From a virus (Duplodnaviria; Heunggongvirae; Uroviricota; Caudoviricetes): DNA of 64,000 nucleotides. Position 1 is the stretch's first letter; each line of letters opens with the position of its first letter. The position numbers and the translations under genes were made by a program. Location: the IMG/VR virus record IMGVR_UViG_3300044878_000087, positions 130,432 through 194,431 of that record; one strand, given 5' to 3'. This document shows, in pieces, positions 1 to 59,706 of this stretch. The notes beneath the pieces are model-generated. The model was not told the DNA's origin and did no database searches. It saw only the letters and a list, made by a program, of their open reading frames with translations.

Positions 1-2
1 CG

Positions 3-755
3 GTATTTACTGCGCCAGTTAAAGCAACCGCTGTGTCATATAACGGCCCAGGTCCACAGACACTGATTGACGGCGACCTTGACCTAGGTTATTACGGTAC
101 ATTGACGCAGGCCCAGTTATACACGATCGCTGGATTGTTCAGTGCTTCTGGGTTGGGTACTGGTGGTACAATGAACCCTACGAACACTGCCTTGACCTGG
201 CATAAGTTTTCCCGTAATGGGAAAACACTGTTCGTTCCAAGTACATTCATTGCATCCACAACCTGCTGGACTAACCTGTATAACAAAGGTTTAGTTTATG
301 GCGTCGATGGTAATGGTCCACAGAACCCAGGCACTGGTGTAAATCAGAAAGTTGTTTTACAAGTGGGTAATGACAGATTCTTAATCCGGTTACCTACCAA
401 TTATGATGATCGCGCTAACCCTAACCGTACAACCCCTGCTGGCGTAACTACAGCTGATACCAGCTCTGGTCGCAAATACAGTGAAGCAGCTGACCTGCTC
501 TGGTCATTGCTTCCATATGCACCCGCATTCCAACGGTTCGCAAGAAAGTCCCCATACTACACCACTGCCTCTATGGAATGGTTATCGGCCGGTCAAGGCT
601 ATCGATTGATCGGCCAAGAGCAAAGTAGCGGGAACGTAATAATGAACACAAACATCGATTCCATCGGTGGTATGTCTGCCGGTGTATCGCTAGCAATTGG
701 TGTATCGGGTGGCGCTAATGGATGGCGTCCAATATTGGAACTCATCGACGATTAA
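3..755 (+). CDS. paralog-family protein 1 (5' partial; open to window start); GPGP..GYYG..W.KF..GK.LF.P motif shared with 770 and 1927 genes; putative virion/host-recognition protein
   Basis: ORF open upstream of the GTG listed at 33; ~120-aa core homologous to the two downstream genes. Confidence 0.6.
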   Translation, partial: VFTAPVKATAVSYNGPGPQTLIDGDLDLGYYGTLTQAQLYTIAGLFSASGLGTGGTMNPTNTALTWHKFSRNGKTLFVPSTFIASTTCWTNLYNKGLVYGVDGNGPQNPGTGVNQKVVLQVGNDRFLIRLPTNYDDRANPNRTTPAGVTTADTSSGRKYSEAADLLWSLLPYAPAFQRFARKSPYYTTASMEWLSAGQGYRLIGQEQSSGNVIMNTNIDSIGGMSAGVSLAIGVSGGANGWRPILELIDD

Positions 756-769
756 TCATGGAGCATTAA

Positions 770-1657
770 ATGACCATTCGTTTAACCTGGACGAATCCGA
801 ACACTGCGTCCGATTCAGTAACAATCTATCGCGATACCAACCCCATCAACCCTGCTAGTCTGCCTGCACCATTGGCAACAATCACTGATGGGTCAACAAC
901 GTATGACGATAGCAATAACCTAGTGCGTAATACGTTGTATTACTATGCCTTTAGTGTCAATAAAAATGGAGACGCTTCTCTTTCGGCACAAAAGGTCATT
1001 TGTAATATGCCCAACACTGGACCTGGGCCAACCTCGTTTGTCCGAGGGGATTGGCTATTGGGTTATTTTGGTGACCTAACCACAGCCGAATTATTCACTG
1101 CCACGCAATTGCAATCGTTGGTTGGATTAAACGCCGCAACTGGCTTGGACTCCTTTACTTGGAGTAAGTTTGCATACAAAGGGAAAGTACTATACTTCCC
1201 TTCGCAGCATCTGCACAACTCCGTTGGATGGAACCTGCTGTATAGCAAAGGCTTGGTATTTGGAACGACGGACACTGGCCCAACTGGTCATAGCAACACA
1301 CCAGTAAACCAACAAATAAAAGTTACTAAAGGTAGTGATGAGTTCATTGTGCGATTACCACGCACTAACTTAACACCTGGTTATGTACAGGGCACTATTG
1401 ATACAGCCAGCGAATGGTACCAATGTGTGGTGGCTCAATGGTCAGCATATAACAGCGGTCTATTGGCACTAAACCAATTAGCGCCAACATGGACTGGTTC
1501 GCCTGCACCCATGGCTGAATTTGTAGCCGGTGTCACAACCCTGGGATGTGCCTATGTCACGGGTAGCCCAGTACCGAATACAGCCACCCCAGGAACATGT
1601 GCACGCAGTTCATCGTCATATCTGTGGCGCCCTGTATTGGAATACGTTCCATCGTAA
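770..1657 (+). CDS. paralog-family protein 2; FN3-like N-terminus (W.NP....Y.V.R......YYYA.S.NKNG) followed by the GPGP core; contains an RGD tripeptide
   Basis: ATG 15 nt after the previous stop; shared core motif with 33 and 1927 genes. Confidence 0.65.
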   Translation: MTIRLTWTNPNTASDSVTIYRDTNPINPASLPAPLATITDGSTTYDDSNNLVRNTLYYYAFSVNKNGDASLSAQKVICNMPNTGPGPTSFVRGDWLLGYFGDLTTAELFTATQLQSLVGLNAATGLDSFTWSKFAYKGKVLYFPSQHLHNSVGWNLLYSKGLVFGTTDTGPTGHSNTPVNQQIKVTKGSDEFIVRLPRTNLTPGYVQGTIDTASEWYQCVVAQWSAYNSGLLALNQLAPTWTGSPAPMAEFVAGVTTLGCAYVTGSPVPNTATPGTCARSSSSYLWRPVLEYVPS

Positions 1658-1671
1658 AAGGTAATCGGTCT

Positions 1672-1866
1672 ATGAGCCTACACAAGTTGTTGGAAGCTGT
1701 AGAGCGCTTGGAGAACCTTACTCCAGAAGAGAAGCGCGCACTACACGAGCGTGCAGCCGAACGCATGCGTAAGTTTGATGAAGAATGTGCTGAACGTATT
1801 CGTAAGAGTATTCCATCACAAGAACTGTTGAACAAAGTTTGCAACTGGGGTACCCTATATGGCTGA
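1672..1866 (+). CDS. small helical hypothetical protein (64 aa, MSLHKLLEAVERL...)
   Basis: RBS AAAGGTAA upstream of the ATG at 1672; the ORF track start at 1597 probably lies too far upstream. Confidence 0.45.
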   Translation: MSLHKLLEAVERLENLTPEEKRALHERAAERMRKFDEECAERIRKSIPSQELLNKVCNWGTLYG

Positions 1867-1882
1867 GCAGCTACGGCTGCTC
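1865..1882 (+). terminator. hairpin GAGCAGC-TACG-GCTGCTC followed by the TTATGCCGCTATCCTAT box
   Basis: perfect 7-bp stem directly after the stop at 1866; same box as at 3938. Confidence 0.4.
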
Positions 1883-1926
1883 TTATGCCGCTATCCTATG
1901 TTAAAAATATATTAAAATAAAGGGAT

Positions 1927-2676
1927 ATGAGGAAGAGCATGTTTGAGGTACTATTAAGTGGTGGGGCACCCGCTACAAAAACAGTTTATCCCAATAGTGG
2001 CCCAGGCCCACAGACACTATTGTTAGGGGATGAGAATATCGGTTACTTTGGAGAGTTATCGGCCGGCGAAGTAATCACCAATGCTGACTTGAAGGCCTTC
2101 CTTAATCCATCGATGCAAAGTAGCGTTATGGTCGATAAAGGATGGTTTAAATGTTTCCACAAAGGCAAAGTAAAGTTTATCTCTAAAGGGGGTACATTTA
2201 CTAACACTGCATGGACTGCACTATATGCTTCCGGTGGCGTCTATGGTACCAATGACAATGGCTTATATCCAATCGGCACAGCTACAAACCAGTATAAGCC
2301 GTTTAACATCACTAATGGTCCTGTGACATGGAAATTGATTCCTAAGCTTATGTCAGGTGGTCAGAATGATCCTAGTAGTAGTTCCCCAGGGGATGATGGT
2401 AGCGAATATACCGATCTAATGTACCGTATGTTTACAGGCACCCATCCGAATGGAGGTGCATTCTTAAAGTATCTTAAAGCAGATGTTGCAATGAACTCGG
2501 CACATGCCTGCGTAGAATCGAAAGACACATTAACAACCAGCACCATTGTTCGTGGTTATACTGGCGTTATTAGTAACTCGGCACAGGTATTGACTAAAGG
2601 CGACAGATCCGGCTATGGGCAAATCTGTCGAATGGTTCTAGTAGTTGAGGGTGATCCAAAAGTCTTACCCGTATAA
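1927..2676 (+). CDS. paralog-family protein 3 (GPGPQTLLLGDENIGYFGEL...)
   Basis: RBS AAGGGA; homologous core to the 33 and 770 genes. Confidence 0.65.
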   Translation: MRKSMFEVLLSGGAPATKTVYPNSGPGPQTLLLGDENIGYFGELSAGEVITNADLKAFLNPSMQSSVMVDKGWFKCFHKGKVKFISKGGTFTNTAWTALYASGGVYGTNDNGLYPIGTATNQYKPFNITNGPVTWKLIPKLMSGGQNDPSSSSPGDDGSEYTDLMYRMFTGTHPNGGAFLKYLKADVAMNSAHACVESKDTLTTSTIVRGYTGVISNSAQVLTKGDRSGYGQICRMVLVVEGDPKVLPV

Positions 2677-2680
2677 GAAA

Positions 2681-2710
2681 TAAAGAAATACTGAGAGTGT
2701 AATAGTATAC
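2681..2710 (+). promoter_or_regulatory. plus-strand promoter-like motif TAAAGAAATAC-N14-TATAC
   Basis: one of five copies (2681, 4885, 6239, 6581, 7037); begins at or next to the upstream stop codon and precedes the tRNA cluster. Confidence 0.4.
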
Positions 2711-2827
2711 GAGAGACTGCCGTTAAAGTCTCCAAACGAGCGTAAGAGTAGGAATCCCCTATAGCCTACTCGACAGGGACCAGGGATATCGGTTAGCCTG
2801 GTTTAACAAAAACCCGACCAAGTTTCA

Positions 2828-2903
2828 GGGTGTGTAGTTCAATTGGCAGAGTAGCGCGCTCCAAACGCGTTGGTTCCAGGTTCGAGTCCAGCCATGCCCG
2901 CCA
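2828..2903 (+). tRNA. tRNA-Trp: tRNA-Trp (anticodon CCA), 76 nt; T-stem carries two mismatches
   Basis: acceptor GGGTGTG/CATGCCC (2 GU pairs), D arm GTTC/GAGT, anticodon arm GCGCG-CTCCAAA-CGCGT, T-loop GGTTCGAGTCC, 3' GCCA. Confidence 0.55.
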
Positions 2904-3623
2904 AACACCACAGACGTCAGTCTGCAAGTCCCCTGGCCTAACCCGCCTTGGGCACCTAAGTTAGTAGTTGAGATATCAGGAGGGTGGGTGTTGCGATTGC
3001 CTCCACTGGTCTGAATAGATCGCGTCAATCGGAATCTATAGTACTTAAAGCCGATTGAGGTAAAGTGGTAAGATCGTCATATCTCCGCTACAAACCCATT
3101 CTCCCTTGAGAGTGGTAAGACCCTCGCAATGGCGTGGGCAGGTCATACACCGATGCCTGATTAATCCTCAGACTAGGGCACCGAGCTGCATGGTGTGTGA
3201 TTATCGAACCCTAAGACGGTTGGCAAAAGATCAGAATAGCCGACTAGCAGGGAAGCTCAAAGCCCGATCCGACAAATACCCCAAAGACCTGATGATCCAG
3301 GTTACTAAGGCGTCATACCGAAGACACGTGAAGACTCGGCTGCAACGGATCAGATGTCCGTCACAGGTTGGCATGGAACAATAGTTCTGTGCGCAACCAC
3401 ATATTCTCAATTACTTGCCCTCCATCGTACTGAAGCTTTGCATGGCGAGTAAGTAGATAGACCTAACGAAACGGTTCGACCTCTAGCGGAATGCCGCGAC
3501 CAGCCCGTGCTGTACATTAGGATAAAAAGCTCGCCCAGCGGCGATCTACACCATACCCGCAATCTGCAGGAATGGATAACCAAGGCTTGAATCTTGGATG
3601 CTGGGAACGAATTTTAGAAACAC
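2904..3623 (+). ncRNA. ORF-poor ~700 bp spacer inside the tRNA cluster; candidate stable structured RNA(s), or degenerate intron/homing-endonuclease remnant
   Basis: no ORF >=60 aa except an Arg-rich 92-aa frame without an RBS; flanked by tRNAs; T4-type tRNA clusters are known to carry stable small RNAs. Confidence 0.3.
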
Positions 3624-3711
3624 GCGGGGATGGTGGAGCGGTATACGCAGCGGCCTTAAAAGCCGCCGCCCTTTACGGGCTCGCTGGGTTCGAATCCCGC
3701 TCCCCGCACCA
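3624..3711 (+). tRNA. tRNA-Leu: tRNA-Leu (anticodon TAA), class II with long variable arm
   Basis: acceptor GCGGGGA/TCCCCGC+ACCA; anticodon arm GCGGC-CTTAAAA-GCCGC; T-loop GGTTCGAATCC. Confidence 0.9.
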
Positions 3712-3717
3712 TATACA

Positions 3718-3805
3718 GGAAGCATGGCCGAGTGGCTCAAGGCAACGGTCTTGAAAACCGTCGGGTGTAATAGCCCCTAGAGTTCGAATCTCTATGCTTC
3801 CGCCA
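3718..3805 (+). tRNA. tRNA-Ser: tRNA-Ser (anticodon TGA), class II
   Basis: acceptor GGAAGCA/TGCTTCC+GCCA; anticodon arm ACGGT-CTTGAAA-ACCGT; T arm TAGAG-TTCGAAT-CTCTA. Confidence 0.9.
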
Positions 3806-3809
3806 GATC

Positions 3810-3885
3810 GCCGACATAGCTCAGATGGCAGAGCAACTGACTTGTAATCAGTAGGTCTTCGGTTCGATTCCGAATGTCGGCACCA
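3810..3885 (+). tRNA. tRNA-Thr: tRNA-Thr (anticodon TGT)
   Basis: acceptor GCCGACA/TGTCGGC+ACCA; anticodon arm ACTGA-CTTGTAA-TCAGT; T-loop GGTTCGATTCC. Confidence 0.9.
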
Positions 3886-3918
3886 GTTATTGTTATTGGC
3901 CTATAGAGCCCCTCGCTT

Positions 3919-3938
3919 GGCCTACCTTTGGGTAGGCT
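3919..3938 (+). terminator. hairpin GGCCTACC-TTTG-GGTAGGCT followed by TTTATGCCGTTATCCTATAC; likely terminator of the tRNA cluster
   Basis: GC stem followed by a T-rich tract immediately after the last tRNA. Confidence 0.5.
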
Positions 3939-3981
3939 TTATGCCGTTATCCTATACATTCTTTTAAGATGGATAACGGTA

Positions 3982-4887
3982 ATGTTTGAAGCACTATTAC
4001 TGGGTAAAGGTTCAAGTGCCCCAATTGGTGGTGCATGGTTAAAATTAGGCGGTTCATTTCCAGGCCGTTATGCTGGCGCCGGAGCAGTATCTGGCGGAAA
4101 GATATATTTATTCGGTGGATACAATGCCGGTGGCCCCACTTATTACAATGACATGCAGTGTTATGATCCTGCATTACAGACATGGTCAGCAAAAGCCACT
4201 GGACCAGCAGGGCGATACAACCACGTAATGGTAGAATGTAATGGATACCTATATCTCCATGGCGGTGTTAACGGTGGTGGCTATTTATCAGACATGTGGC
4301 GTTATGATCCTGTAGGTAATACATGGTTAGCTAGGGCTTCTACAGGTAGTGGTGGCCGTGATGGTGGTGCAATGGCGGCAGTCGGGACTAAGATCTATGC
4401 TGTTTGTGGATATGTTCCTAACGTCTATAGTACCGAAATGCGCATATATGACACGGTAGCAAACACCTGGTCATTAGGAACACCACTACCAGCAACAGGG
4501 CGTTCGAATGCCACAATGGTGGCGATTGGTACAAAGCTTTACTTGTATGCTGGTCAAGCGCCATCAATGAATGATTTGTGGTGTTTCGATACGGTGGCTG
4601 GAACATGGACACAACTGGCCGATGGTCCAAGTGCACGTACCAACCATACTGCTACGGTATTGAATGGCAAGATGTATATGCATGGTGGTTCAGGCACAGT
4701 GGAAGGTACATCTGCAAAATTCTATAGCTATGACCCTAACACAAATCTATGGACTACGCTAACGGCCAGTCCTACAGGTAGTCAACGTTCCGATGCTTGC
4801 CTAGTTGCGATGGATGGAAAGATTTATCTTACCGGTGGCTACAACCCACCAACGTACCCTACAGACATTTATCAGTTCACGCCATAA
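3982..4887 (+). CDS. Kelch-repeat beta-propeller protein (about 6 repeats: GG..G...ND...YDP..N.W)
   Basis: repeated Kelch motifs; ATG at 3982 preferred over the TTG at 3928 that falls inside the hairpin box. Confidence 0.75.
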   Translation: MFEALLLGKGSSAPIGGAWLKLGGSFPGRYAGAGAVSGGKIYLFGGYNAGGPTYYNDMQCYDPALQTWSAKATGPAGRYNHVMVECNGYLYLHGGVNGGGYLSDMWRYDPVGNTWLARASTGSGGRDGGAMAAVGTKIYAVCGYVPNVYSTEMRIYDTVANTWSLGTPLPATGRSNATMVAIGTKLYLYAGQAPSMNDLWCFDTVAGTWTQLADGPSARTNHTATVLNGKMYMHGGSGTVEGTSAKFYSYDPNTNLWTTLTASPTGSQRSDACLVAMDGKIYLTGGYNPPTYPTDIYQFTP

Positions 4888-4914
4888 AGAAATACCCTCA
4901 ACAAAAACTATATA
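4885..4914 (+). promoter_or_regulatory. plus-strand promoter-like motif TAAAGAAATAC-N13-TATAT (contains the Kelch stop codon)
   Basis: family member; about 50 nt upstream of the 4965 ATG. Confidence 0.4.
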
Positions 4915-4964
4915 GGGGACCTCCGGGTTTCCTTTATAGCCCAATACCCCAATAGGACTTTCCA

Positions 4965-5354
4965 ATGTATACAAGATTCATGTACCCCCCACGTAGGAAA
5001 ACGCCAACTGACCGTATTCGTGAAGGCGAAGCTCACCGTGCACGTCTAGCTATACGAGAAGCCATTGAAGCCGAAAATACTCGGTTCAAAGGACCAGAAC
5101 CAATTGGTGAGGCAGTAGTAGCTTACGGTGCCGGAATGCATACTGTGTTTCAGCGTATGCGTGGTGATGCCGTGTACAGTAGTGACCAGACGCGTGCGTT
5201 ACTTGAAGATGCGATGTGTAACATACGCAAAGAGTTCACGGAACGACAACGTGAATATCATCGGTATGAACCAACTGTAGTCATCATGACAGACGGCAAA
5301 AGAGATTATTTCTCTCTTCGTTTGGATGGATGGGAAATAATGAGGATCAGCTAA
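4965..5354 (+). CDS. hypothetical protein (129 aa)
   Basis: ORF; its stop TAA overlaps the next start (TAATG). Confidence 0.55.
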   Translation: MYTRFMYPPRRKTPTDRIREGEAHRARLAIREAIEAENTRFKGPEPIGEAVVAYGAGMHTVFQRMRGDAVYSSDQTRALLEDAMCNIRKEFTERQREYHRYEPTVVIMTDGKRDYFSLRLDGWEIMRIS

Positions 5355-6241
5355 TGGAAACACTACCATTGATATACAAAGAACACCTATCTGAACTGGA
5401 TCAATCCGTTAACTTCGAACATCGCATGACCGATCACAAAGGAATGTTAGAAGCACGTTACGTACGACGTAGCGATGATTACTTCATTGTTTATTTGTCG
5501 TCTCAAACAGGATGTAAACAAGCCTGTCGTATGTGTCATCTAACAGCTACGGGTCAAACAGATCTTCGCGACACTACTATCGAAGAATACTGGGATCAAG
5601 CTGATCGTGTACTGAGGTACTATGCTAACAAAACTCCTGCCCGGATGGTGCACTTTAACTTCATGGCTCGTGGTGAACCATTGGCTAATAAGATCTTCCT
5701 AGAGAATGCCGACTTGATTCTGCGTGGTCTAGCTAATCGGGCAAAAGCATTAGGGTTGGAATATAAATTCCTCATATCCACAATCTTCCCAAAAGAGTTT
5801 GATGTCTATGAACTCACCGATGTTTTTAAAGACCCTGCTTTAAGACCGGAACTTTATTACTCGTTGTATTCAACGGATCGTGACTTCCGTAGAAAGTGGC
5901 TAGGTAAAGCAATTGAACCTGGTATTGCACTTACCCTGCTCGGACGTTGGAATCGATCTACTGGTAAAGTACCTAAGATCCATTATGCATTCATTGATAA
6001 TGAAAACGATTCACTCGGTGATGTAAAGCGTTGCATTGATCTGATCCAGCATTATAACGTTCCCGTCAATTGGAACATTGTTCGATATAATCCACCTAAC
6101 GATAAATCGAAAGAGACCATCGAAGGACAAATCAATTACCTGGCTGGTTACATTCGTAGTCGTCTACCGAAGGCACGAGTGAAAGTAATCCCACGGGTCG
6201 GTACAGATGTAAAAGCCAGCTGTGGTACGTTCTTGAAATAA
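5354..6241 (+). CDS. radical SAM enzyme, RlmN/Cfr-like RNA methyltransferase core (SSQTGCKQACRMC...; C-terminal ASCG), lacking the usual N-terminal domain
   Basis: CxxxCxxC preceded by the RlmN/Cfr SSQ.GC hallmark and a C-terminal Cys in an (A/S)CG context; RBS GAGGA; alternative start at 5330. Confidence 0.7.
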   Translation: METLPLIYKEHLSELDQSVNFEHRMTDHKGMLEARYVRRSDDYFIVYLSSQTGCKQACRMCHLTATGQTDLRDTTIEEYWDQADRVLRYYANKTPARMVHFNFMARGEPLANKIFLENADLILRGLANRAKALGLEYKFLISTIFPKEFDVYELTDVFKDPALRPELYYSLYSTDRDFRRKWLGKAIEPGIALTLLGRWNRSTGKVPKIHYAFIDNENDSLGDVKRCIDLIQHYNVPVNWNIVRYNPPNDKSKETIEGQINYLAGYIRSRLPKARVKVIPRVGTDVKASCGTFLK

Positions 6242-7036: not shown

Positions 7037-7066
7037 TAAAAGAATACTGGCGGTGTCAGTGTATGT
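7037..7066 (+). promoter_or_regulatory. plus-strand promoter-like motif TTAAAAGAATAC-N14-TATGT (variant), upstream of rtcB
   Basis: extended similarity to the 6581 copy over about 40 nt. Confidence 0.35.
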
Positions 7067-7100
7067 AACACTCCCTCTTTCCACTCGCGTGAGGCTTTAT

Positions 7101-8366
7101 ATGAAACAACAAACTCGTACATTCGAAATTCTCGGTGGTGAACCAGAACCAGGTTCTAAACCAATCAAAGGTTGGACCGTTGGTGTTCCCGTAGAACCCG
7201 ATGCAATCAAGCAACTCAAGAACTTGGCAGCTCTGCCATTCATCCAATCCCACCTGGCGGTAATGCCAGACGTGCATGTGGGTAAAGGTGCGACTATCGG
7301 TTCTGTGATCGCTACCAAAGGCGCAATCATTCCAGCAGCCGTAGGCGTTGACATCGGTTGTGGTATGGCGGCTTATCGCCTGAACGCTTCTGCTAAAGAT
7401 CTGCCTGATTCGTTGGGTCACGTTCGTGCAGCTATCGAAGCGGTAATCCCTCATGGCCGTACAGATAACGGCGGGAAGAACGACCGTGGTGCCTTCGGTA
7501 CTGTAAAAGTATTCAACCACCCAGTCAAGGCTGTCCGTGAAGAAGCTGAAAAGCTCAAGCGTGAACTGGAAGTCATCGTTCAGAAATATCCGAAGCTCTC
7601 TAAGGCTGCTGAGCGTGCATGGATGCATATCGGTACTCTCGGCACAGGTAATCACTTCGTAGAGCTGTGCTTGGACGAAGCGGACCGTGTATGGGTAATG
7701 CTGCACTCTGGTTCCCGTGGGATCGGTAACGCAATCGGTACACTGTTCATCAACCTGGCCAAAGAAGAGATGCGCCGCTTCTTTATCAACCTGCCAGATC
7801 AAGAACTCGGCTACTTGCCGTACGGTTCCAAGTACTACGCCGACTACCTGCATGCAGTACAGTGGGCACAACGTTTCGCTGCTCTGAATCGTTCTGTGAT
7901 GATGCATGCTACTTTGGATGCAATTCATCGTACCCTCGGTCTGCCAATCGATTCCGATATGGAAGCGATCAACTGCCACCACAACTACGTATCGGAAGAG
8001 CGTCACTTCGGTGATAACGTTCTGGTAACACGTAAAGGTGCAGTAGCGGCCTATGAAGGTAAGCTCGGGATCATTCCAGGTTCGATGGGCGCTAAGTCTT
8101 TCATCGTTCGTGGTAAAGGCCATCGTGATTCGTTCTGTTCATGTTCGCATGGTGCAGGTCGTGTAATGTCACGTAAGGCAGCAGAGCGTGTGTTCACGCT
8201 AGAGGACCACATTCGTGATACGGCTGGAGTTGAGTGCCGTAAAGACGAAGGCGTCCTAGATGAGACACCAAAGGCTTACAAGAATATCGATGATGTGATG
8301 GCAGCCCAAGCTGAACTGGTTGACATCGTCCATACCCTGAAACAAGTTCTTTGCGTTAAGGGTTGA
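7101..8366 (+). CDS. rtcB: RtcB 3'-phosphate/5'-OH RNA ligase
   Basis: hallmark GTGNHF, CHHNY and SCSHGAGR motifs; RBS GTGAGG before the ATG at 7101 (track start at 7053 is probably too early). Confidence 0.9.
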   Translation: MKQQTRTFEILGGEPEPGSKPIKGWTVGVPVEPDAIKQLKNLAALPFIQSHLAVMPDVHVGKGATIGSVIATKGAIIPAAVGVDIGCGMAAYRLNASAKDLPDSLGHVRAAIEAVIPHGRTDNGGKNDRGAFGTVKVFNHPVKAVREEAEKLKRELEVIVQKYPKLSKAAERAWMHIGTLGTGNHFVELCLDEADRVWVMLHSGSRGIGNAIGTLFINLAKEEMRRFFINLPDQELGYLPYGSKYYADYLHAVQWAQRFAALNRSVMMHATLDAIHRTLGLPIDSDMEAINCHHNYVSEERHFGDNVLVTRKGAVAAYEGKLGIIPGSMGAKSFIVRGKGHRDSFCSCSHGAGRVMSRKAAERVFTLEDHIRDTAGVECRKDEGVLDETPKAYKNIDDVMAAQAELVDIVHTLKQVLCVKG

Positions 8367-41016: not shown

Positions 41017-41223
41017 TTAAGCTGTGTGAAGTCTTTCAATCGCTTCACGTTGGAGTGCTTGGCGTTCCGTATCAGAGAGGCTGAATACCGACAGCGTTTC
41101 TGATACTGCGATCCCTTGCGGCTTGTGGGATTCGCGGCCCTCTGCGATTGCAGCTCGCAGTACATCGGACAGGTAACCAGCGCGAAGCTGGGTGGAGCGG
41201 TGCAGCAGTTCCTCGTACTTCAT
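41017..41223 (-). CDS. small hypothetical protein (68 aa)
   Basis: ORF. Confidence 0.4.
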   Translation of the reverse strand: MKYEELLHRSTQLRAGYLSDVLRAAIAEGRESHKPQGIAVSETLSVFSLSDTERQALQREAIERLHTA

Positions 41224-41320
41224 TTTACTTCCTTACTGTTGGTTTGTGCTTACATTCTACCATAAGCACACCTAGTGTCAACACTTAGTTTGGTAAAACA
41301 TGCATCTTTTTTTTGCAGCT

Positions 41321-55640: not shown

Positions 55641-55676
55641 ACATGGTCCTAAAATTCTCCTTTGGTATCAAGTTAG

Positions 55677-55695
55677 TTATATAGATTTCAGATTT
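55677..55695 (-). promoter_or_regulatory. minus-strand promoter-like motif AAATCTGAAATCTATATAAC (variant of the 19-mer family), upstream of the homing endonuclease gene
   Basis: family resemblance. Confidence 0.4.
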
Positions 55696-55701
55696 GTTGC
55701 A

Positions 55702-55917
55702 CTAAGCCCGCAGCACACCAAATATACAAAGCGCATCCACCACGCAGGCGACGAGCAAAATATACTTAAAGCGTCTTTTTGTTTTGGGTAGGTAGAAGGA
55801 CCACCACGTGTAGGCTGATCCACACCCAACCAAGATACCGATAGACAGGGTCTGAGCAATCGCCCAGAAGACGATAAACAGAATCGTGTGCTCGTTCATC
55901 GTTTCCAGATCTTCCAC
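55702..55917 (-). CDS. small membrane protein (71 aa or 65 aa from the second ATG)
   Basis: hydrophobic ORF. Confidence 0.4.
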   Translation of the reverse strand: MEDLETMNEHTILFIVFWAIAQTLSIGILVGCGSAYTWWSFYLPKTKRRFKYILLVACVVDALCIFGVLRA

Positions 55918-56019
55918 AGTGTACTGCCAAGTTCATAAAGGCCATAGCAAACTAATCCTACAGCTACAACCATCATGCCCAGTTCGATATACATGTCTTG
56001 CGCATTGAATAGAATCATT
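55897..56019 (-). CDS. possible 40-aa membrane peptide (MILFNAQDMYIELGMMVVAVGLVCYGLYELG...)
   Basis: ATGA/AATGA overlaps with both neighbours; no clear RBS. Confidence 0.25.
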
Positions 56020-59299: not shown

Positions 59300-59464
59300 C
59301 CATGTTACAGAATAAAAGCCTCCCTCCTTTGCTCTTAGTGGGACTGTTCACCTATACTAAGAGGAGGCTGAGTATAAAAAAGAAAAAATGAGTAGTATGG
59401 ACTCCCCTAACCCGAAGGCCAGAGGAGTCCATTCCGAATAGGAAGAACTATGCTGATGAAACCC

Positions 59465-59659
59465 TTAAAGCATAGTTGTATCACCGATGCCGTGCATTGC
59501 TACGGTTGAGACGTCTGCACTCCGATAGTGAGAGTCAGTAGCAGTAACAGCTGTCTGGTGGTGTGTGAATTGGGGTATGAAGCGATCAACCATGCGATAC
59601 GCTGGGATCAGGTCTTCAAAGGAAATAATGGTATTATTTAGATTAAGATGTGCAAGCAT
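59465..59659 (-). CDS. small hypothetical protein (64 aa)
   Basis: ORF. Confidence 0.35.
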   Translation of the reverse strand: MLAHLNLNNTIISFEDLIPAYRMVDRFIPQFTHHQTAVTATDSHYRSADVSTVAMHGIGDTTML

Positions 59660-59706
59660 GAGAACCTTCCTCCTGGAAGTAAATCATCCTGGCTACAGTA
59701 ATTAGA

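Follow-up and report, generated by a model that had tools for sequence, protein, structure and literature searches.

A probable new family of large structured RNAs encoded between tRNA genes in Pseudomonas jumbo phages

Positions 2904-3623 of a tailed-phage genome segment (IMG/VR record IMGVR_UViG_3300044878_000087) interrupt a tRNA cluster, and the initial annotation had described them as poor in open reading frames (ORFs) and likely structured. What, then, does this gap encode? We addressed the question in the window, the whole 64,000-nt stretch analyzed here (positions 130,432 to 194,431 of that record), to which all coordinates refer unless a relative is named. We conclude that the gap is very probably the gene for a ~720-nt multi-domain structured noncoding RNA (ncRNA) of a new family, which would be released from a tRNA precursor and act as a stable RNA or as the scaffold of a ribonucleoprotein (RNP).

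ARAGORN and Rfam placed the gap exactly where it had been drawn. It is bounded by tRNA-Trp (CCA) at 2828-2903, whose 3′ end sets the 5′ boundary of the RNA, and by tRNA-Leu(UAA) at 3624-3711, whose 5′ end sets the 3′ boundary; tRNA-Ser(UGA) at 3718-3805 and tRNA-Thr(UGU) at 3810-3885, called by the same two programs, follow, all on the + strand. The fold energy of the gap, compared with dinucleotide shuffles, gave z = -5.05 on the + strand and z = -0.56 on the - strand, demonstrating folding beyond chance for the + strand and not for the - strand. Many conserved G-U pairs likewise support the + strand, and covariation then bore out the suspected structure.

RNAalifold, applied to 10 sequences, returned 77 pairs, 29 of them with compensatory changes. 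A curated structure of 20 helices and 92 pairs, including two pseudoknotted elements, was scored on alignment A3 against a control in which the 3′ partners were slid by 1-3 columns. In 94.8% of cells the curated positions pair, compared with 28-41% in the slid control (a contrast weighed further below), and 35 compensatory pairs were observed, compared with 6-10 in the slid control and 17.5 ± 2.5 in shuffles; none of the 500 shuffles attained the observed value on any of five measures. Helices that MAFFT misaligned in variable regions were checked by separate minimum free energy (MFE) folds of each member, in which P1, A4, A5, C5 and the V stem form from differing sequences. Covariation across relatives had been set beforehand as the test on which the structural reading could fail, and the outcome was the opposite: the structure is conserved. 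Taken together, these results show that the sequence and a complex fold of domains A, B and C, with a kissing loop and a pseudoknot, are kept by compensatory change, and a functional structured RNA is well supported.

The clearest case is domain B (3152-3361, + strand), a set of nested helices B1-B5 with hairpin B6, B7 and B9, delineated by covariation and by covariance model R1. Across 16 sequences, its 45 pairs are 90.7% paired, compared with 26-44% when slid, with 22 compensatory pairs compared with 4-9. Model R1 scores the window at 160.7 bits, finds every member, and recovers the held-out contig L268 at 138.5 bits. Two loops of this domain pair with each other on the + strand: GAUCA at 3229-3233, in the loop of hairpin B5 (3218-3245), and UGAUC at 3293-3297, in the loop of hairpin B6 (3286-3303). 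This kissing loop is complementary in 16/16 sequences, occurring as GAUCA/UGAUC (window type), GACUA/UAGUC and AGUCG/CGACU, and 5/5 of its pairs are compensatory. In phage Phabio, hairpins B5 and B6 are apparently missing by eye, and model R1 finds no domain B.

Domain C (3411-3605, + strand) is the most conserved part and is built of covarying helices. C1 (3412-3451) encloses the invariant CCCUCCAUCG; C2 (3462-3521), C5 (3551-3575) and C3 (3580-3597) are further + strand helices; and C6 (3453-3458 with 3544-3549) crosses C4 (3534-3539 with 3600-3605) on the same strand to form the pseudoknot. C6 exists in three compensated versions, GUAGAU/AUCUAC, AUAGAU/AUCUAU (RVTF4) and ACAGAU/AUCUGU (L258), and C4 reads CCAGC/GCUGG, or CCAAC/GUUGG in RVTF4. 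The blocks CCCUCCAUCG, CUGAAGC, GUAGAUAGACC and GGAUGAAAAGC of this domain are invariant and apparently unpaired.

Domain A (2964-3091, + strand) is closed by helix P1 (2964-2976 with 3079-3091) and holds hairpin A2 (2977-3008) and an extra hairpin (3027-3056). P1 appears in the MFE folds of 8 members from differing sequence, e.g., GUAAGAG/CUCUUAC and AUGAGAU/AUCUCAU. Hairpins A4 (3096-3115) and A5 (3121-3138), also on the + strand, follow; each member forms both, again from differing sequences. A variable region, V, which folds as a plain + strand hairpin in the window (3366-3398), lies between domains B and C, and an unstructured 3′ tail (3606-3623, + strand, as judged from the fold) runs up to the putative RNase P site of tRNA-Leu. 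The segment AGAUCGC (3017-3023) is complementary to GCGAUCU (3541-3547), a candidate long-range pairing between domains A and C. The palindromic loop GUGCAC of hairpin A2 was considered as a dimerization signal and rejected: it is not conserved in the window, in Psa21 or in L108.

The segment at 2904-3623 does not code for protein. The Arg-rich 92-codon frame noted earlier is real, with a TTG start, at 3106-3384. The longest open stretch in the gap is 106 codons, which is ordinary for shuffled sequence (mean 94.6, standard deviation 20.8). The frame is not conserved: relatives carry at least four stops in each frame across its span, except for a poorly aligned 218-nt stretch in Phabio that is open in one frame. 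Length differences among relatives in this region are not multiples of three, 3-base periodicity of substitutions is absent (codon-position counts of 21/19/27, 26/27/26 and so on), and a Pfam search of the region's frames gave no match. As a side observation, stretches of 290-410 bases lacking an ORF of at least 80 codons also occur at 41021-41312, 55641-55974 and 59300-59706 of the window.

These data bear on the idea, raised at the outset, that the gap is a decayed protein gene, intron or homing-endonuclease remnant drifting neutrally. The 92-codon frame speaks for it, as do the HNH endonuclease and alginate-lyase ORFs found in the corresponding tRNA clusters of relatives. We nevertheless consider it hardly credible. 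The frame is unconserved, shows no codon periodicity, has an open length typical of shuffles and matches nothing in Pfam; the RNA is conserved more than the neighboring genes; and compensatory base-pair changes are incompatible with neutral decay, which is thereby refuted.

We then assessed how widely the RNA is conserved. Thirteen long forms lie at the equivalent position in Pseudomonas jumbo phages like Psa21, D6, RVTF4 and Phabio and in metagenomic contigs, with pairwise identities of 46-86%. The window itself stems from a Pseudomonas jumbo phage akin to these four, and its closest phage DNA in GenBank has ~79% identity over partial coverage only. The homologues lie at L002:2815-3520 in D6, L004:2994-3845 in RVTF4, L001:3650-4468 in Psa21 and, in a shorter form, L003:2566-3190 in Phabio; contigs from IMG/VR, JGI, ENA and Logan supply L043, L128, L132, L136, L254, L258, L261 and L267. 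tRNA-Leu(UAA) stands within 0-10 nt 3′ of the RNA in all long and mid-size forms not cut by a contig end, and tRNA-Trp, in some relatives together with tRNA-Ser(GCU), stands upstream. Within positions 1-5000 of the window, only the RNA, a leader ahead of tRNA-Trp and the tRNAs are recognizably conserved as DNA in most relatives. Identity is 72-85% for the RNA core, compared with 66-68% for a downstream RlmN-like gene, and the upstream ORFs are undetectable at the DNA level.

A family profile scores the window at 399.5 and 209.7 bits. The features by which we propose to define the family are all present in the window: the domain B core with the B5/B6 kissing loop, UACUUGCCCUCCAUC, GUAGAUAGACC and GCGAUCUAC in domain C, and a position 3′ of tRNA-Trp and 5′ of tRNA-Leu(UAA). 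A pattern scan of genomes gave 81 chance matches and no bacterial homologues, and one of metagenomes gave three stretches: the new member L132, a contig already in the set and a chance match. A domain B pattern scan found no additional long forms, and the pattern ACTTNCCCTCCATCG was discarded as a query because it was too unspecific. No long form was found in PhiPA3, and in the relatives L137 and L257 the RlmN-like gene is present and the RNA element was not found.

Seven relatives carry an alginate-lyase ORF (224 aa, PL7, PF08787, 1e-39) between tRNA-Trp and the RNA, an insertion absent from the window: Psa21 (L001:2975-3649), L132 (6284-6958, - strand), L128 (6397-7071, - strand), L136, L258, L261 and L267. 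Where alignable, it replaces the first ~55 nt of the RNA. Two 5′ hairpins on the + strand within 2911-2952, Ha (2911-2924) and Hb (2930-2952), covary in members without the ORF and are regarded as optional because the ORF occupies their place in these relatives.

How would such an RNA be made? A promoter-like box lies upstream on the + strand at 2687-2714, consisting of AATACTG (2687-2693), five nucleotides, and GTAATAGTATACGAGA (2699-2714). The 16-mer GTAATAGTATACGAGA is identical in 8/8 phages aligned there, abuts the RNA directly in Phabio, and as a box occurs only once in the 64-kb window; variants of the box stand before other tRNA clusters and before stand-alone modules described below. 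On this conservation, the box is likely a phage promoter. It is followed by the conserved leader with hairpins (2715-2827, + strand, 69-92% identity to relatives), one of which, GAGACU/AGUCUC, becomes GAGGUU/GACCUC in D6 and L043. The terminator hairpin reported after tRNA-Thr is readable at 3920-3942 on the + strand as GCCUACC uuug GGUAGGC followed by TTTAT; a simple terminator scan misses it because it has fewer than 5 T. The hairpin with a TTTAT(G/A)CCG signature also closes stand-alone modules. At 1866-1900 and 3920-3950 of the window, a recurring hairpin followed by (C)TTATGCCG(Y)TATCCTAT lies 3′ of transcription units, and this signature probably joins a terminator to a promoter signal for downstream transcription in this phage group.

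Window scans found no promoter or terminator belonging to the RNA itself within 2904-3623. The box at 2687-2714 would drive one precursor comprising the leader, tRNA-Trp, the RNA, tRNA-Leu, tRNA-Ser and tRNA-Thr, and two cuts would separate the RNA from it, one at 2903/2904 through tRNA 3′ processing and one at 3623/3624 through RNase P; released in this way, it would need no ends of its own. A single precursor with ends made by tRNA processing is the simplest reading of the sequence, and co-transcription with the tRNAs and release by their processing are almost certainly how the RNA arises.

The tRNA region of phage T4 offers a precedent: its stable RNAs, species 1 and 2, are simple and ~140 nt long, and are likewise non-tRNA RNAs co-transcribed with a phage tRNA cluster and freed by tRNA-processing enzymes. 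The initial annotation had proposed stable small RNAs of this type. It was right as to kind, an RNA cut from a tRNA precursor, and wrong as to a T4-like set of small species: the window encodes one ~720-nt multi-domain RNA, five times longer than the T4 RNAs, which have no Rfam model, and of a different family. A parallel for the 3′ end is the eukaryotic MALAT1/mascRNA locus, where RNase P makes the 3′ end of a long noncoding RNA by cutting at a tRNA or tRNA-like structure downstream; in the window a true tRNA takes that place, and the arrangement suggests the same 3′-end mechanism.

A different organization is seen in a sister clade, which was reached by tracing homologues of the RlmN/Cfr-like gene through Logan, JGI and ENA contigs and which comprises L259, L260, L265, L268, L269 and the cultured phage Viktualia. 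In these phages, domain B forms a gene by itself, ~300 nt long, which carries a promoter-like box and a hairpin terminator of its own; tRNAs are ~2 kb away, and the neighborhood has no tRNA-Leu(UAA) (L259:5727-6061, L260:5669-6009, L265:3240-3560, L268:6945-7247, L269:6672-6929). The V+C1 module is a separate ~280-nt element directly after tRNA-Trp, with a promoter-like box of its own; such "cf" elements lie at L255:4260-4545 and L268:4647-4981. A 384-nt A+V form lacking B and C lies between tRNA-Met and tRNA-Leu(UAA) at L270:6201-6584. By sequence comparison, then, the window RNA combines modules that sister phages encode as individual small RNA genes.

Beyond this clade, model R1 gave a weak match in PhiPA3 at L140:443-568 (HQ630627.1 ~301376-301501, minus strand; 20.2 bits, E 0.006 over 403 kb). 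The matching region is intergenic, has the same box and terminator, and is annotated on the reverse strand as "hypothetical protein 368"; we treat this domain B candidate as a lead only. In PhiKZ, an ncRNA of ~100 nt that lies between genes 298 and 297 is abundant (PMC8545117), and a link between it and the PhiPA3 candidate is possible. Coding sequences annotated as "hypothetical protein" also overlap family members in Phabio (PHABIO_450, L003:2689-2919) and Viktualia (PV037725.1 ~75240-75459); PHABIO_450, PhiPA3 gene 368 and the Viktualia ORF were probably mis-called over RNA genes.

The split arrangement helps to decide whether the element might be only a cis-acting spacer or leader, controlling the transcription, processing or stability of tRNA-Leu(UAA) and having no life of its own after processing. 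The constant presence of tRNA-Leu(UAA) directly 3′ (0-10 nt) in all uncut long and mid-size forms fits such a role, as does the fact that, in the window, neither a promoter nor a terminator belongs to the element itself. However, the split clade has domain B as a free-standing gene, ~2 kb away from tRNAs and equipped with a box and a terminator; Phabio and L270 have tRNA-Leu(UAA) yet only a small piece of the element; and ~700 nt with a kissing loop, a pseudoknot and invariant loops far exceeds the needs of any known tRNA spacer. We therefore regard a purely cis-acting element as quite improbable.

Does the RNA belong to a known family? Rfam 15 returned only the four tRNAs for the whole window, for a 1.8-kb region at E<=1 and for three ~250-nt pieces at E<=10, so that nothing was called inside the gap, and on four relatives at E<=5 it gave no family for the element. 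Lacking an Rfam match, the RNA is not GOLLD, ROOL, an intron, RNase P, tmRNA or a curated ribozyme, and no description of an RNA of this kind was found in the literature searched. ARAGORN and the Rfam tRNA model called no tRNA or tmRNA inside 2904-3623 on either strand. The aberrant or intron-containing tRNA suggested earlier is thus dismissed for want of a cloverleaf; of the scattered T-loop fragments reported with no cloverleaf, the missing cloverleaf was confirmed and the fragments reduced to a single isolated GGTTCGA at 3473-3479.

Introns and RNase P RNA were tried and rejected as well. A group I intron has no Intron_gpI match, the flanks are complete tRNAs and not exons, and the last base is C, with no terminal G; two group I R/S-like strings, CAGACUA and GAUAGUCC, are actually hairpin loops, and the idea was dropped because these loops pair with each other and covary as the kissing loop. 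A group II intron gave no match either, and with no group I or II match, no flanking exons and no terminal G, a decayed intron fares no better. For RNase P RNA there was no model match and, by eye, no P4-like pairing or complementary CR-V; a faint CR-I-like 5′ string lies in the part absent from seven relatives, and the candidate was rejected on the missing match and the dispensability of that part.

The same results weigh on the possibility that the RNA is a ribozyme, group I-derived or RNase P-like, that processes itself or its tRNAs. Such a catalyst would be useful to a nucleus-forming phage if its transcripts were shielded from host enzymes, the invariant unpaired blocks of domain C resemble catalytic cores, and the element always lies among tRNAs. 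Against this, models of ribozymes, introns and RNase P gave no match even in short permissive searches, inspection by eye showed no P4-like pairing, the CR-I-like 5′ part is dispensable, and exons and a terminal G are lacking. Catalysis is accordingly a very improbable role.

In kind, the closest counterparts are GOLLD and ROOL. GOLLD is an ornate phage or prophage ncRNA of >700 nt in or next to tRNA islands, with tRNAs sometimes inside or adjacent; like the present RNA, it combines a variable part with a 3′ part of higher conservation, is rich in pseudoknots and loop-loop contacts, and has no described protein partner or function. The context that characterizes GOLLD (a phage, >500 nt, a tRNA island) recurs here as 720 nt between tRNA-Trp and tRNA-Leu. 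Nevertheless, the GOLLD covariance model found no match in the window (1.8 kb at E<=1; pieces at E<=10) or in the four relatives, and since no Rfam model matched at any threshold tried, sequence and secondary structure are unrelated. The present RNA also differs in occurring in Pseudomonas jumbo phages and in having modules that are separate genes in sister phages. ROOL, at ~600 nt, is similar in that phages or prophages encode it close to tRNA islands and in its complex fold with multiple pseudoknots, which is thought to act without protein; the same searches gave no covariance-model match to it, and its architecture is unrelated. GOLLD and ROOL form RNA-only cages.

One module of the relatives does resemble a known RNA. 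The V region takes the shape of a three-way junction like H18-H19-H20 of 23S rRNA in L270 and in 9 of the 13 long forms. The carriers are D6 (L002:3272-3323), RVTF4, L132, L128, L136, L258, L261, L267 and Phabio, together with L270, and the module is diverged in the "cf" elements. The junction sequence, CUGG-UUGGAAU-ACCAG-GCCAUAGA-AGGUGAUAGUCCCGUA, matches H18-H19-H20 in topology and sequence, and the topology is seen in the folds of 6-7 members. The Rfam model for the bacterial large-subunit (LSU) rRNA, LSU_rRNA_bacteria, matches the D6 module over positions 331-383 of the model, in an alignment that includes each of the three helices (18.7 bits; E 2.5e-4, searching 116 nt). The family profile scores 13.3 bits on nt 303-375 of an archaeal LSU rRNA, compared with no more than 0.4 bits on any of 100 shuffled rRNA decoys, and RVTF4 matches E. 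coli 23S nt 298-339 by BLAST. For uL4 and uL24, two proteins of early assembly, the minimal site on E. coli 23S rRNA is nt 281-359 (PMC6426284).

The window does not share this module. No LSU rRNA match was found in 3140-3400, where there is only the plain hairpin at 3366-3398, and among the 13 long forms the H20 motif is missing from the window, Psa21, L043 and L254; the window hairpin appears from its sequence to be a degenerate remnant of an H18-H20-like junction. In reproducing a primary ribosomal-protein site of 23S rRNA, 9 of the 13 long forms recall the autoregulatory leaders of ribosomal-protein genes and OLE RNA with bS21, with the differences that the module sits inside a large phage ncRNA, is close enough to be recognized by the LSU model, and is lacking from the window copy. 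A wider likeness to 23S rRNA (domain B to ~nt 1520-1675, domain C to nt 2783-2900) was tried: local alignment gave z of 0.3-5.2, with several members mapped consistently, and the likeness is not claimed because nhmmer with decoys and a covariance-model scan gave no support.

These observations invite the reading that the RNA is an rRNA mimic or decoy that would sequester or recruit uL4/uL24, or factors reading that site, and so redirect ribosome biogenesis or translation. The D6 and archaeal matches, the junction in member folds with its correspondence to the minimal uL4/uL24 site, and its presence in 9 of the 13 long forms, in L270 and, diverged, in the "cf" elements all point that way. The likenesses noted by eye near nt 1600 and at the 3′ end of 23S rRNA remain without nhmmer or covariance-model support, however, and the module is missing from the window, Psa21, L043 and L254, so the conserved domains A, B and C cannot have decoy activity as their core function. 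We consider a decoy rather improbable as an account of the RNA; because V copies the uL4/uL24 junction, ribosomal proteins may be partners in the phages that carry it, and not necessarily in the phage of the window.

Two genes downstream of the cluster deserve mention: a distant RlmN/Cfr-like radical SAM RNA methyltransferase gene at 5330-6241 (TIGR00048, 1.3e-13; 50.7 bits against a curated cut-off of 290 bits) and an RtcB RNA ligase gene at 7053-8366. With the tRNAs, they form an RNA-centered gene island kept across relatives. Upstream lie three tandem paralogous ORFs (33-755, 770-1657 and 1927-2676) with a common N-terminal motif, ...GPGPQTL..G....GY(F/Y)G; neither Pfam nor NCBIfam gave a match for them, and no DNA-level conservation in relatives is detectable.

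Considering the evidence as a whole, the RNA is most likely a stable RNA or RNP scaffold cut from a tRNA precursor, a judgment drawn by analogy. Folded into a compact particle, it would act on the translation and RNA-processing machinery of the host, either as a stable RNA or as a scaffold of RNA and protein. This is favored because its size, ornateness and tRNA-island site parallel GOLLD and ROOL and because its setting is linked to translation: the tRNA island, the RlmN/Cfr-like gene, RtcB and the relatives' copy of an rRNA site point to the translation apparatus. A cis-acting spacer, a ribosomal-protein decoy, a ribozyme and a decayed gene all rank well below it.

Several points weigh against this scaffold reading. 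The window copy is without the one module that hints at a partner. We infer transcription, processing sites and stability from sequence for all members, and the family is known from about 13 long forms in a narrow clade. The contrast with the slid control is inflated, since the curated structure comes from the very sequences on which it was scored; the counts of compensatory pairs suffer less from this bias. Some helices, including AGAUCGC/GCGAUCU, are unproven because they are invariant, and that pairing overlaps and competes with helix C6.

A bolder reading, which we rate as unlikely, though worth stating, is that the window RNA represents, fused into one molecule, a modular RNA system (A, B, V and C) of nucleus-forming Pseudomonas jumbo phages, a ribosome-like particle that captures uL4/uL24 and other translation factors. 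The modules would assemble in cis or in trans, the H18-H20 copy in V would capture these early 50S assembly proteins, and the glue, within or between molecules as in the GOLLD and ROOL cages, would be supplied by the kissing loop together with the long-range pairing of A and C. If this were true, it would constitute an RNA-based phage route to seize host ribosome biogenesis, and the diverged domain B gene of PhiPA3 would extend the system to model chimalliviruses.

To our knowledge, large ornate bacterial and phage RNAs are rare, with a handful of classes described (OLE, GOLLD, ROOL, raiA and HEARO), and those of phages have no known function. The scaffold RNA proposed here would add a new large-RNA class. 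Its carriers are Pseudomonas jumbo phages, relatives of the model phages that form a nucleus, and they include the cultured Psa21, D6, RVTF4, Phabio and Viktualia. Its modules are fused, separate or lost depending on the phage, which amounts to a natural dissection, and the copy of the uL4/uL24 site suggests candidate protein partners.

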